This document shows positions 26,357 through 39,098 of a DNA stretch of 64,000 bases, piece after piece. Source of the DNA: Escherichia phage NHEP29. Where the stretch lies: the sequence record PQ511150.1. One strand, given 5' to 3'. The number at the start of each line of letters is the position of its first letter. Position 1 is the stretch's first letter. The notes beneath the pieces were generated by a model. It searched no databases, was not told where the DNA came from, and saw only the letters and a list, made by a program, of their open reading frames with translations. A program made the position numbers and the translations under genes.

Positions 26357-26659
26357 TTATTTACCTTTAATTACTTTAGCTGCTTCGATAGCCGCTTGCT
26401 GAAGGTCATCCATAGACATACCGAATTTAGAAGCAAAGTTATCAATTTTCTTTTCGACAGCATTCAAAGGCTTGGCCTGTTTACCTTCATTAGCGCCAGG
26501 AAGAGCGAGAATACGCTCTTTGTCAATATAAAGGCTTACAAGTTTCTTACGGTCTTTATCGGACAAATCATGAAATGAATGGGCCTTTTTATTTATAGCG
26601 GATTCTAATTTACCTGCACTCACTCGAGCTTCAGTAATAAACTCTTGATATGTTTTCAT
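26357..26659 (-). CDS. internal protein (capsid-targeting-signal protein; ipII/ipIII-like)
   Basis: 100 aa starting MKTYQEFITEARV, the T4 internal-protein capsid targeting sequence. Confidence 0.65.
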   Translation of the reverse strand: MKTYQEFITEARVSAGKLESAINKKAHSFHDLSDKDRKKLVSLYIDKERILALPGANEGKQAKPLNAVEKKIDNFASKFGMSMDDLQQAAIEAAKVIKGK

Positions 26660-26722
26660 TTTGTTTCCTTGTTTGTTTTGATAGAGTAATTATACCATAT
26701 TAATACTTAAGCGTAAACAATT

Positions 26723-26983
26723 TTAAGCTTTACCGCCGGAAATAATTCCGAAGTTGTTAAAATCGTATTCAATATCGTCAACATCTACTTTAGGACTTGC
26801 TACAACATAAGCAATTTCACTACGTTTTGCATAGGTGTTGATTTCTTTACCATCGCCACCTAAGAAAAAATACCCATTACGTTTTAATGAGCCAAAGTCT
26901 TCCGCATCACCAATGAAAGCTTTAACTTTAAATTTAGGACCTTTAGCATCTGCTTCAGTGATAAATTCTTGATACATTTTCAT
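26723..26983 (-). CDS. internal protein (capsid-targeting-signal protein)
   Basis: 86 aa starting MKMYQEFITEA. Confidence 0.65.
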   Translation of the reverse strand: MKMYQEFITEADAKGPKFKVKAFIGDAEDFGSLKRNGYFFLGGDGKEINTYAKRSEIAYVVASPKVDVDDIEYDFNNFGIISGGKA

Positions 26984-26989
26984 TTTTCC

Positions 26990-27403
26990 TTAGTAAATTG
27001 ATTTACCGTAGTATTTGTACCAAGTCGGACGTTGAGCAATTTTTTCATCTAAGCGAGCTTGACTTATCGCAATGGACGCTTCGGACGGGACATAATTATT
27101 ACGAAATTCGGCAGGGATGTCGGAAATATCCTGGACAGTCGTGTCCTTGATTTTGAAACCACGTTTCAAACATTCAGCGATTAGCTCGATTTGACGTAAA
27201 CGTAAAAATTCGAGTTTGTCGTAAAAGAACGTTACGTGACCTGTGCCTAAGATAAATGTTGGAGAGATTTTAAAATCCTTTACACGTTTACCGTTTTGAA
27301 CATGTTTACGGACTGCACCAAATACGCGTGGTAATTCACGATACTCAGCCATAAGATGTTGGTCGGTCAGTTCAGAAACAAGTGTTAAATTGATACGAGT
27401 CAT
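26990..27403 (-). CDS. denV: endonuclease V (pyrimidine-dimer DNA glycosylase) DenV
   Basis: [34 protein letters not shown]... matches T4 DenV as recalled; ATG at 27403. Confidence 0.9.
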
Positions 27404-27461
27404 AATTTCCTCCAAGTAGTTGATGAATGTATAGTATCAAAGTCCTTGGAGGAAGTAAACA

Positions 27462-27743
27462 CTATTTTTCTGAAGCGCCTGAAATATATTTTTCAAGACG
27501 TTGTTTCATCAGCGAGCCGTTCTTAGCGATTTCTTCCGGTTTATCGCACATACGCAACAAGGCTTCAAGCTTAACGATATCACTGGTACGTTCAAATTTG
27601 CGAGTATCTATCTTACTAGCAAGTTCAGAAATACGTGCTAATAGACTTTCAGCTTCAACCAAAGCTGCACCTAGCTTAGTTGCAAATGTGTCAGTAGCTT
27701 CGTTAAGAATAGATTCTGATAAAAATTCACTATATGTTTTCAT
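27462..27743 (-). CDS. internal-protein-like (capsid-targeting-signal) protein
   Basis: Starts [13 protein letters not shown] after trimming; stop overlaps e start. Confidence 0.6.
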
Positions 27744-28228
27744 ATATACGCTTTCCAAGTTCCTGTTTTAAATGTTGAGATTACGCGTTTCGCGCGATTA
27801 GGTGTCTGACGATACCATTTAGATTGGGCTAGATTTACTGCCGCTTCATCCCAACGTTTCTGTTGAAGCATACGAAGAGAATTAGTAAAACCAGCGACGC
27901 CTGCTACACCCATTTGGAAGACCATATTGACCAATGCACATCGACGAACCGCATCTAAAGAATCATATACCGGTTTAAGCTTAGCATTACCTAAGATTCC
28001 GCGAACAGCTTTATCAACGTCTTCATTAAATAGCTTTTCAGCCTCATCAAGGGTAATTGTACCGTTGCATTTACGTCCGATCATTCTGTCAAGTTCAGCT
28101 TTAGCTACGGCTAAAGACGGGTTCTTTGTTACTAAATGGCCTATGCCAATCGTCCAAAAGCCTTCAGTGTCTTTGTATAAAGTCAGTCTAAGACCTTCGT
28201 CATTACGAAGCATTTCAAATATATTCAT
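27740..28228 (-). CDS. e: lysozyme (endolysin) gp e
   Basis: [32 protein letters not shown]... matches T4 lysozyme as recalled; SD GGAGG. Confidence 0.95.
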
Positions 28229-28232
28229 AATA

Positions 28233-28252
28233 CCTCCCACGTTTATAGGAGG
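28233..28252 (-). promoter_or_regulatory. RBS-sequestering hairpin with TATAAA element upstream of e
   Basis: CCTCC-N10-GGAGG hairpin whose 3' arm is the e SD; loop contains TATAAACG. Confidence 0.45.
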
Positions 28253-28262
28253 TATTTATTAC

Positions 28263-37304: not shown

Positions 37305-37383
37305 TAAATAACTTTCTATTATGAAAGGCACTTTAGAGTACCTTTGGTAATAGAGGGTATGAATTAATAATAACACATAATTC

Positions 37384-37899
37384 TTAAAGCAAATCAATCA
37401 TTTTAACAGTTGGTAAAACAATTTCCTTTTCAATATAAGCAAATTCGACACGTTCAACTACACGCAAGAAATCGTAATCATAATATTCAGAAGCATGGCC
37501 GAGAATATCAATAAGGCCTTTGGATACCTCATCACCTTTCACAAAGAACAGGTCGAATACACGCGATTCGTCTTCTTCAGATTTATTACCAAGGTCGACT
37601 TCAATATCAAAGACCTTTTTAATGAATTCTGGATAAAGCTGGTCTGAGAACAGTCCTTCAACCAAGTATTCATAGATTAAAAGTGAGCAATCACTGAACG
37701 GTGTATTACCACAGTAACGTTCAGCTTTAGTGCTAGAATGACGACTCTTAAATTTCTTCAAGAGATATTTAAACTGTTGGAGCTCATGCTCTTCTACACC
37801 AAATAATGTTTTGATTTTATAGTTGTCGCCGTCATTTTCCCAAGTAGTGACATCAACTACGTAACCTTTAGGAATTGTACTGCCTAAACAAATATTCAT
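37384..37899 (-). CDS. hypothetical protein
   Basis: 171-aa ORF. Confidence 0.55.
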   Translation of the reverse strand: MNICLGSTIPKGYVVDVTTWENDGDNYKIKTLFGVEEHELQQFKYLLKKFKSRHSSTKAERYCGNTPFSDCSLLIYEYLVEGLFSDQLYPEFIKKVFDIEVDLGNKSEEDESRVFDLFFVKGDEVSKGLIDILGHASEYYDYDFLRVVERVEFAYIEKEIVLPTVKMIDLL

Positions 37900-37903
37900 T
37901 TAC

Positions 37904-38194
37904 TCACCGTACCATATTAATGTAATTATATTCAATGCAACGTAATTTCAAAGGATTCTTGAAAATATCATATTCAAGAGGACCTGATTCAGTTTCAATA
38001 AAGAAATCAAAGTTCACACTATTAAATTTGCGGTCTTCCCAAAGTAATTTAACCTGTGAAGATGAACGGTCGACGTAAACCTTTTCAACTTCAAAATTAG
38101 TCAAAATACCATAGTAATCGACTAGTGCTTTAGCTGCACGTTGATCGCTTTCATATCCATTCTCGACAGATTTTACTTTAGCATAAAGAATCAT
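37904..38194 (-). CDS. hypothetical protein
   Basis: 96-aa ORF. Confidence 0.5.
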   Translation of the reverse strand: MILYAKVKSVENGYESDQRAAKALVDYYGILTNFEVEKVYVDRSSSQVKLLWEDRKFNSVNFDFFIETESGPLEYDIFKNPLKLRCIEYNYINMVR

Positions 38195-38553
38195 GAGTGT
38201 TCCACCACTTCAAAAGTATGTGCATTGACAATCTGATACCAGTCAAAATTTTCTTCAGTATTTTTGTAGATTTCACGAAGAGCTTCAACAGTTTTTCCTG
38301 TAGCAACAAGATCGTCAATACCGCCAAGAGGATAACAGTCGTAACCAGCAAACAGAAGAAAATTAATAGTTTCTGTAGGTTCTGGATGCAGAACACCGTT
38401 ATCGTCTACCACTTCAAAGAAAATGTAAGAAGGAGTACAAGTTTTAATCCAGGCCCAGGCTTGAGCTGCTGAATCAAATGGTCTGCGTATCAAACGACAA
38501 TCAGGGTCTTTAGAAGGATTTGCTTCAAAATCCGCATATACGTGATATTTCAT
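38191..38553 (-). CDS. hypothetical protein
   Basis: ORF trimmed to MKYHVYADF start. Confidence 0.5.
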   Translation of the reverse strand: MKYHVYADFEANPSKDPDCRLIRRPFDSAAQAWAWIKTCTPSYIFFEVVDDNGVLHPEPTETINFLLFAGYDCYPLGGIDDLVATGKTVEALREIYKNTEENFDWYQIVNAHTFEVVEHS

Positions 38554-38554
38554 T

Positions 38555-38761
38555 TTACTCACCTTTTGCAATTTTATCCATAACGATAGCGATTAAGCCG
38601 ATTAGAAATGCTACTACCAATGAGATAGAATTTTCTGTTGTTGTCAGTAGTCCACAAATGAATCCTACAAACATCGAAAAACTAAAAGCCATTGAAGCAA
38701 TTACTACAGCAACATTACGAATCAGTTCAGCGCGTTTCATTTTATTTCTCCATTTACTCAT
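38555..38761 (-). CDS. hypothetical small membrane protein
   Basis: 68 aa with one long hydrophobic helix. Confidence 0.45.
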   Translation of the reverse strand: MSKWRNKMKRAELIRNVAVVIASMAFSFSMFVGFICGLLTTTENSISLVVAFLIGLIAIVMDKIAKGE

Positions 38762-38765
38762 TTGT

Positions 38766-38806
38766 TTTGATAGGACTACTATATCATAGTCCTATCAGCA
38801 TGTAAA
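38766..38806 (-). promoter_or_regulatory. early-type promoter cassette with perfect palindrome GATAGGACTA..TAGTCCTATC
   Basis: Minus-strand GTTTAC-spacer-TATAGT; 10-bp arms flank the -10 region. Confidence 0.5.
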
Positions 38807-38810
38807 CTAC

Positions 38811-39098
38811 TTACAGAAGAGTTTTTGCAATAATTTTAAGCTGAGCTACAGAAATATGCTTAGCTTTAAACAGTGCAGTCTCTTCAGCAGGAGAGATAAC
38901 AATAGTAGCGCCATCTTTCTTAGCAGACCATCCATCCCCTAAGTAAACAGTACCTTTTACTTCTTCGCCGTCAACCAGACTAATCATTGGTTTACCCTCA
39001 CGTCCTTTATTTGCTTTAATAACTTCGGAAGTAAGGGTCGCTTCGGTCAGAGTAGAAACGTTAGCATCAGGTGATATAAATTCTTTATAGGTTTTCAT
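38811..39098 (-). CDS. internal protein (capsid-targeting-signal protein; ipI-like position next to 57B)
   Basis: 95 aa starting MKTYKEFISP; sits next to 57B, where ipI lies in T4. Confidence 0.65.
   Translation of the reverse strand: MKTYKEFISPDANVSTLTEATLTSEVIKANKGREGKPMISLVDGEEVKGTVYLGDGWSAKKDGATIVISPAEETALFKAKHISVAQLKIIAKTLL

Follow-up and report, generated by a model that had tools for sequence, protein, structure and literature searches.

A probable internal-protein repertoire of five genes bearing the T4 capsid-targeting signal in Escherichia phage NHEP29

A 64,000-nucleotide stretch of Escherichia phage NHEP29 (PQ511150.1; here referred to as the window) carries, between positions 26357 and 39098, five minus-strand genes whose products begin with the capsid-targeting signal (CTS) of T4 internal proteins (Ips). 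Four of these genes already have names (ipI, ipII, and two encoding small proteins, here called ip86 and ip93), and only the fifth, which encodes a 208-residue protein (p208), is unannotated. Together, the five genes very probably constitute the Ip set of an RB69/JS09-like T4-type phage of the genus Mosigvirus. Ips are the first phage proteins in the cytoplasm, and in T4 they decide if modification-dependent (GmrSD) restriction kills the infection; therefore, the set of Ips helps to set the host range of therapeutic and environmental phages. The genes and the features associated with them are as follows.

26357..26659, minus strand: ipII ortholog, 100 amino acids (T4 IPII identity, phrog_7857)
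26630-26659, minus strand: CTS propeptide of ipII, residues 1 to 10, MKTYQEFITE↓A (arrows mark candidate cleavage sites)
26689..26717, minus strand: T4-early-type promoter upstream of ipII, TTTACG-17-TATAAT with TG (scan, 10/12 matches)
26723..26983, minus strand: ip86, small internal head protein, 86 amino acids, CTS MKMYQEFITE↓A (phrog_2667)
27462..27743, minus strand: ip93, Ip5-related internal head protein, 93 amino acids (phrog_3499)
35785..36411, minus strand: p208, unannotated CTS protein of 208 amino acids (phrog_2280, unknown function)
36364-36411, minus strand: p208 propeptide, residues 1 to 16, MYTFNEFLAE↓TEVITE↓AG
36447..36454, minus strand: T4 late promoter TATAAATA, first T at 36454, 43 nucleotides (nt) upstream of the p208 ATG
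36455..36484, minus strand: terminator-like hairpin, AGCCCC...GGGGCU plus U6, directly before the late promoter
38811..39098, minus strand: ipI ortholog, 95 amino acids (Pfam PF11634 and T4/RB69 identity)
39042-39098, minus strand: ipI propeptide, residues 1 to 19, ending LTE↓A
39133..39161, minus strand: T4-early-type promoter upstream of ipI, TTTACA-17-TACTAT with TG (scan, 9/12 matches)

These features lie within a 14-kb stretch that shares 95 to 98% identity with the Mosigvirus genomes AV117, PNJ-9, TU01, JS09, HX01, and mar005P1 and that follows the gene order of T4 (vs.8, denV, e, nudE, e.2 to e.6, two tRNAs, tRNA.2 to tRNA.4, ipI, 57B, 57A, and gene 1). A preliminary description of the window had located all five open reading frames (ORFs) and their N termini correctly, but its picture of genes dispersed over an accessory region misses much of their arrangement: four occupy the two classical variable Ip loci (e/denV and 57B/ipI), and only the p208 gene lies elsewhere.

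In T4, proteins that carry the CTS bind the scaffolding core and are cut after Glu by gp21, and approximately 1,000 Ip molecules remain with the DNA and are injected alongside it (PMC5694885, PMC3012670, PMC9026906). IPIII depends on its first 10 residues for packaging, and these residues are enough by themselves, also to package foreign proteins (PMC9026906, PMC3012670). Residues 4 and 7 serve targeting and residues 8 and 10 serve processing (Mullaney and Black, as cited in PMC9026906), and Ip propeptides span 10 to 19 residues (PMC9026906). To locate this signal, we searched all six frames of the window with a strict N-terminal pattern, M-[KY]-[TMAS]-[YF]-x-[ED]-F-[ILV], and used 100 shuffles of the sequence as a control. 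The CTS occurs at the start of exactly five ORFs, all on the minus strand: the pattern returned five matches, which are the five genes, and none in the 100 shuffles. We also trained a position score on canonical Ip N termini, leaving p208 out, and applied it to the 538 ATGs followed by at least 50 codons. The five genes took ranks 1 to 5, with p208 scoring 29.8 against a background mean of −1.6 (standard deviation, 7.2); the sixth-ranked ATG (23.4) is an internal Met within a 1,032-residue ORF (47775-50873) and not an N terminus.

At the residue level, the five conform to the published CTS (aromatic residue at 4, Phe 7, Ile/Leu 8, Glu 10; PMC9026906), with Tyr or Phe as residue 4, Phe as residue 7, and Ile or Leu as residue 8 in every protein. 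E10 is present in four of the five; IPI instead has P10 together with LTE19↓A, exactly like T4 IPI. Candidate I/L-x-E cleavage sites fall at E10 (IPII and ip86), E10 or E15 (ip93), E10 or E16 (p208), and E19 (IPI). The earlier assignment of the common N terminus to the CTS of packaged T4 internal proteins is thus borne out, two of the five being IPI and IPII themselves, and so is the view that these are packaged proteins, with another two in PHROG families named “internal head protein” and the fifth represented by a 99%-identical ortholog with a mass spectrometry (MS) record from virions.

The ipI product is 88% identical to T4 IPI and matches the Pfam profile PF11634 (IPI_T4) over its full length (E value 1.4e-50; 169.6 bits against a gathering cutoff of 25; residues 20 to 95 on profile positions 1 to 76 of 76); none of the other four CTS proteins matches this profile. 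Its length, its 19-residue propeptide ending TE↓A, and its locus between 57B and tRNA.4 are those of T4 IPI. The mature 76-residue IPI* is identical to that of RB69, in agreement with a previous report on RB69 (PMC6024577), and differs from T4 IPI* at four residues, the effect of which on specificity (for example, toward the GmrSD of UTI89) was left open in that report. IPI was present in all nine genomes of a comparison that covered the same stretch in eight Mosigviruses and T4, using a relaxed N-terminal pattern.

IPII is 92% identical to T4 IPII over 100 residues, has the same 10-residue CTS, and belongs to phrog_7857, “internal virion protein” (E value 8.4e-55); tblastn matched 197 phage records, many of which label the gene ipII or internal virion protein. 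The gene sits between denV and vs.8 here, whereas in T4 it sits between denV and ipIII/e. In the nine-genome comparison, which yielded 11 mature-domain families (10 of them occurring in Mosigviruses), IPII was found in the window, AV117, and ZQ3 (separate searches also placed it in TU01), and a 109-residue Ip unrelated to IPII occupies the ipII slot in RB69, SSE1, mar009P5, and 308Ecol101PP. As alleles of one slot, the two proteins are mutually exclusive; additional Ips of 104, 87, and 108 residues are present in some of the genomes. Between the two alleles, the early-type promoter and ribosome-binding site (RBS) are 95% identical and the 30 nt of the CTS are 93% identical, but identity over the 300 nt directly past codon 10 is 44%. 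Because identity drops right after the CTS codons, we place the exchange boundary at the end of the tag, which fits the two variable IP loci described previously, where more than 30 IP variants occur and cassettes are flanked by early-promoter-based elements (PMC2839356). By location at the e/denV or 57B/ipI locus, early-promoter flanks, and presence/absence or allelic replacement among close relatives, IPI, IPII, ip86, and ip93 are variable-cassette Ips and p208 is not. Separately, the ipII coding sequence itself contains a perfect match to the late-promoter motif, TATAAATA (26590-26597, minus strand), which could drive late transcription of the vs.8-like gene downstream.

The two small proteins have relatives already named as internal proteins. 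The ip86 gene starts 6 nt past the denV stop, and its product belongs to phrog_2667, “internal head protein,” a name that several RefSeq records also use; it was present in six of the eight Mosigviruses compared. The ip93 ATG (27743), which forms an ATGA overlap with the stop codon of lysozyme gene e, is the likely start, in line with the preliminary description, although the ORF lister had begun the frame at a TTG (27462-27758). The protein belongs to phrog_3499, “internal head protein” (E value 1.2e-46), RefSeq and UniRef list 100% identical copies under that name, and the protein was present in all eight Mosigviruses compared. Compared with “ip5” of T2, PP01, and AR1, ip93 has 47 to 51% identity over about 84 residues and also carries the CTS, but its gene adjoins lysozyme gene e rather than the ipI locus. 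In ip93, the 10-residue CTS is followed by S, and a second site, SILNE↓A, lies at residue 15. The RB69 ortholog (L014, 6923-7204) starts with MKTYMNFYQNLSLNE, followed after the candidate cleavage site by ATD; it deviates at tag residues 5 to 12 but retains the LNE↓A site along with the mature part. This suggests either that proteins of the ip93 family are actually cut at residue 15 or that the RB69 sequence contains a local error.

The third locus is that of p208. The gene has its own late promoter, as had been proposed, with TATAAATA placed behind the hairpin and its U run, and the hairpin (predicted RNA fold, −17.3 kcal/mol; z score, −2.6) isolates p208 as a late transcription unit of its own. 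The gene lies one small ORF downstream of a reduced tRNA cluster: positions 37150 to 37304 (minus strand) contain two tRNA genes only (Arg-TCT and Met-CAT), and T4 has eight along with segB, rnaC, and rnaD. In the AlphaFold2 (AF2) model, which has a predicted local distance difference test (pLDDT) score of 72, the protein consists of a helical N domain (residues 19 to 73), a disordered Lys/Pro/Ala linker (74 to 112), and a helical C domain (118 to 208; pLDDT, 83 to 92). Mature p208 has a computed mass of about 21 kDa and an isoelectric point (pI) of 9.8, and residues 73 to 117 include 11 Pro and 9 Lys/Arg. The Lys/Pro-rich stretch reported earlier is a low-complexity linker and not a repeat, as Tandem Repeats Finder detected no tandem repeat in it.

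Evidence that p208 is a virion protein comes from a near-identical ortholog. The protein is identical at 206 of 208 residues to MAR005P1_00015 (LR027390), which is marked in GenBank as “confirmed structural protein by MS.” Electrospray ionization tandem MS of CsCl-purified mar005P1 virions detected five proteins, MAR005P1_00015 among them; the other four were the tail sheath, the prohead core protein, the major capsid protein, and the Alt ADP-ribosyltransferase (PMC6563131). Its detection among just five virion proteins implies a high copy number. For IPI and IPII, presence in virions is indicated by orthology to T4. We found no proteomic record for ip86 or ip93, and a study of phage APCEc01 contained no proteomics (PMC4900583).

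Homologs of p208 extend well beyond the Mosigviruses, and the tag travels with them. They occur in Dhakavirus JS98 (orf135), Karamvirus PG7, Winklervirus CBH8, Kanagawavirus 305 and Q7622, Klebsiella and Erwinia phages, and Yersinia phage fHe-Yen9-01, and share a position between the tRNA cluster and e.8/e.6. Relatives in at least five genera retain both the tag and a candidate cleavage site, I/L-x-E↓A, with identity outside the tag falling to 33% or less. All homologs start M-x-x-[YF]-x-[ED]-[FI]-[LIV]-x-E, most with a second [LIV]-x-E↓A/S site, and an alignment of 14 family members shows no variation at F7 or E16 and almost none at E10 or A17. The most distant relatives, among family members P0036 to P0038, begin MLKFNEFLAE, M-NFKEFLKE...LNE↓A, and MISFNEFV...ITE↓S. 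Expression signals are also shared: TATAAATA or a G/C-ATAAATA variant lies upstream of the homologs in JS98, PG7, CBH8, 305, Biddle, SonariX, COW86c, and Q7622, at about −35 where the position was computed, and a GC-rich hairpin lies upstream of most homologs examined.

When 1.84 billion representative proteins were searched exhaustively with a hidden Markov model, only 13 relatives came up, and the family is narrow, without an informative distant homolog. No family member was detected in T4, which carries rnaC, rnaD, e.7, and e.8 at that site. The protein is “hypothetical” wherever it is annotated in the 138 phage records that match it and in all named cluster members. Within the family, Q7622 (L011, 1501-2112) and P0034 combine a p208-type CTS, N domain, and Lys/Pro/Ala linker with an unrelated C domain, and P0037 has yet another, which suggests that domains are swapped on a module for packaging and tethering that itself stays constant.

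Two apparent disruptions of the gene were observed in related phages. At the RB69 p208 locus lies a very divergent CTS protein (27% identity; E value 6e-4) that starts MKTYAEFLTEA and is split by an apparent frameshift into overlapping ORF148c and ORF149c (NC_004928 [L014], 15429-15991). The frameshift is probably a sequencing error, like the one at ORF052c/053c in the same record (PMC6024577); a literature search with ORF149c identifiers retrieved no paper. The SSE1 ortholog (L018, about 10951-10975) has an extra T in the T run of the CTS (TTTTTT versus TTTTT), which puts the tag out of frame and leaves the annotated start further downstream. The extra T is either a homopolymer sequencing error or a natural loss of the tag.

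Searches for an identity or fold of the uncharacterized proteins returned little. Scans of ip86, ip93, and p208 with Pfam, NCBIfam, and PADLOC models gave nothing meaningful, and a p208 profile search against PDB sequences gave nothing below an E value of 0.8. The structure prediction that the preliminary description had called for did produce folds, with fold matches that are generic or uninformative: ip86 is predicted to be a small alpha/beta protein with generic structural neighbors, and Foldseek with the p208 model recovered only its own family from BFVD and generic helical hairpins from PDB (E values above 2.6). Three candidate relationships were rejected. A weak TonB match of p208 (E value 0.004; 17 bits against a cutoff of 315) is compositional and reflects the Pro/Lys-rich linker; weak DUF7412 matches cover mainly the common N terminus; and BLASTP aligned p208 to T4 IPIII over residues 1 to 26 only (E value 0.004). 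No IPIII homolog was found by BLASTP among the five proteins.

The functional background is best developed for T4. Ip1, Ip2, and Ip3 are inhibitors of GmrSD type IV restriction enzymes, each with a target of its own (PMC12373910): IPI* acts on the GmrSD of CT596, Ip2 on GmrSD-ECOR21, and Ip3 on the two-gene GmrSD-ECOR17, without cross-protection among the three (PMC12373910, PMC9391042). RB69 IPI likewise counters GmrSD (PMC6024577). Carried over by orthology, GmrSD inhibition would be expected of the IPI and IPII encoded in the window. The mature domains had been described as diverse and unrecognized, which can apply to no more than three of them, as IPI and IPII are well characterized and their GmrSD targets are published (PMC12373910, PMC6024577). 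That such proteins are candidate anti-defense effectors is the standing hypothesis of the field for new Ip variants (PMC3012670, PMC12373910) rather than a new idea.

On the reading of the five genes as an Ip repertoire, the aromatic residue 4 and Phe 7 of each CTS would bind the scaffolding core of the assembling prohead, and the prohead protease gp21 would cut after the Glu of I/L-x-E at residue 10 or, in the longer propeptides, at 15, 16, or 19. The mature Ips would be retained in the head with the DNA and then injected with it. In the host, IPI* would block a CT596-type GmrSD and IPII an ECOR21-type GmrSD, and the Ip5-like ip93 together with ip86 would be small cassette-type Ips that are probably aimed at other variants of modification-dependent nucleases. 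We envisage p208 as a larger, basic, late-transcribed, high-copy internal protein, syntenic outside Tequatrovirus, that would take the place of T4 IPIII in size and charge, though not homologous to it. T4 IPIII is itself basic and late transcribed. Both proteins bear a CTS, are similar in size (193 residues for IPIII versus 208), and are apparently high-copy virion proteins, but p208 differs from IPIII in its locus by the tRNA genes, its two-domain helical build with a linker, its conservation across genera, and its absence from T4.

Several observations weigh against this reading or limit its reach. The MS evidence for p208 demonstrates presence in virions and not location in the head interior; the head location, injection, and any anti-defense role of p208, ip86, and ip93 are what we infer, and the cleavage positions and injection are likewise predictions for this phage. 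Mature ip86 and ip93 are near neutral (pI 5.3 and 6.3, respectively), as opposed to the basic IPI, IPII, and p208. The p208 gene is at a third locus, by the tRNA genes and outside both known variable Ip loci, and a late promoter, with no recognizable early-type one, was found in the 120 nt read upstream. Furthermore, p208 is larger than classical Ips and is conserved across genera instead of being hypervariable; its role could therefore be structural or DNA related and not anti-defense. Lastly, none of ip4 to ip10 from other phages reproducibly inhibited the additional GmrSD systems that were assayed (PMC12373910), so that the statement that all Ips target GmrSD is unproven. The N-terminal sequences from the window had no match in the supplements of that study.

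A DNA-binding and condensing role or a role in ejection was once proposed for the basic T4 internal proteins. A comparable housekeeping role for p208, which would be packaged through its CTS and whose basic helical domains and linker would bind or condense DNA or help in ejection, is a serious alternative, though on balance doubtful. It would account for the retention of sequence and gene position in at least five genera, unlike cassette Ips, for an abundance sufficient for detection in a shallow, five-protein proteome, and for the basic mature protein, its linker with 9 Lys/Arg and 11 Pro per 45 residues, and its late promoter alone. However, T4 IPIII, equally abundant and basic, proved to be a specific GmrSD inhibitor (PMC12373910), and the p208 family is absent from T4 and is therefore dispensable for T4-type head function. 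The replacement of the C domain in Q7622/P0034 and P0037 and the very divergent RB69 allele look more like the turnover of an effector.

We consider it highly unlikely that p208 is a virion protein of the tail, neck, or baseplate with a coincidentally CTS-like start. Presence in CsCl-purified virions is all that MS shows, and the predicted long helices resemble generic coiled-coil or fiber elements; yet the N-terminal score lies about 4 standard deviations over background, F7 does not vary among the 14 aligned members, E10 hardly does, and the Glu-Ala at 16-17 (the candidate cleavage site) varies little or not at all. In addition, p208 has no counterpart among the T4 tail and neck components, and T4 lacks the gene. 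Least probable of all, and close to negligible in our estimation, is that the common N terminus is only a recombination junction (promoter, RBS, and first codons) for cassette shuffling and has no targeting function in some of the proteins. The cassette boundary does coincide exactly with the end of the CTS codons, and early-promoter-based elements do flank IP cassettes (PMC2839356). Against this, the IPIII tag (residues 1 to 10) is both required and enough for packaging (PMC9026906, PMC3012670), the distant p208 relatives P0036 to P0038 keep the motif at the protein level with a late promoter and without cassette exchange, and a near-identical p208 ortholog is physically in virions.

Returning to p208 as an Ip, we offer, as an unlikely but specific conjecture, that it represents a third, hitherto unrecognized class of T4-type internal protein in non-Tequatrovirus Tevenvirinae: conserved, late, high-copy, about 21 kDa, and injected. 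Such a protein would combine the CTS, a small helical domain, a Lys/Pro/Ala tether, and an exchangeable C-terminal effector and might counter a host defense directed at the DNA of these phages, which would be arabinosylated or modified in another way.

The concept of a common tag on diverse injected anti-restriction cargo at variable loci is already established, and the established picture of Ip action is unchanged by our results. What is gained is an accurate list of the small Ips in the window (IPI, IPII, ip86, and the Ip5-like ip93) and the demonstration that allelic replacement in the ipII slot starts right past the tag codons. A modest new point is that PHROG 2280, represented by p208, is a CTS-bearing protein confirmed in virions via an ortholog and encoded at a third locus; p208 or RB69 ORF149c may be among the more than 30 IP variants already listed. 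The Ip tag on this widespread “hypothetical” virion protein suggests a testable role and is a reason to rename it.

Small ORFs in the neighborhood show two further shared C-terminal motifs, both in minus-strand genes. Five ORFs (28944-29435, 30123-30428, 32844-33203, 33182-33607, and 33546-34163) have F-[IV]-x-E-[CI]-R in common (RFITECR, NFIKECR, NFIKECR, EFVKEIR, and QFIMECR). They include homologs of T4 e.2 to e.5, of which e.2 to e.4 are annotated as predicted membrane proteins, and the motif could be a common functional tail or a conserved gene junction. Three tandem ORFs (32053-32250, 32260-32532, and 32542-32847; 65, 90, and 101 residues) end in G-x-W-[VI]-[SA]-S-S-x-x-C (GWVSSSYSC, GGWIASSHTC, and GAWVSSSALC) and form a paralog array of unknown function that is the counterpart of RB69 ORF136c to ORF139c.

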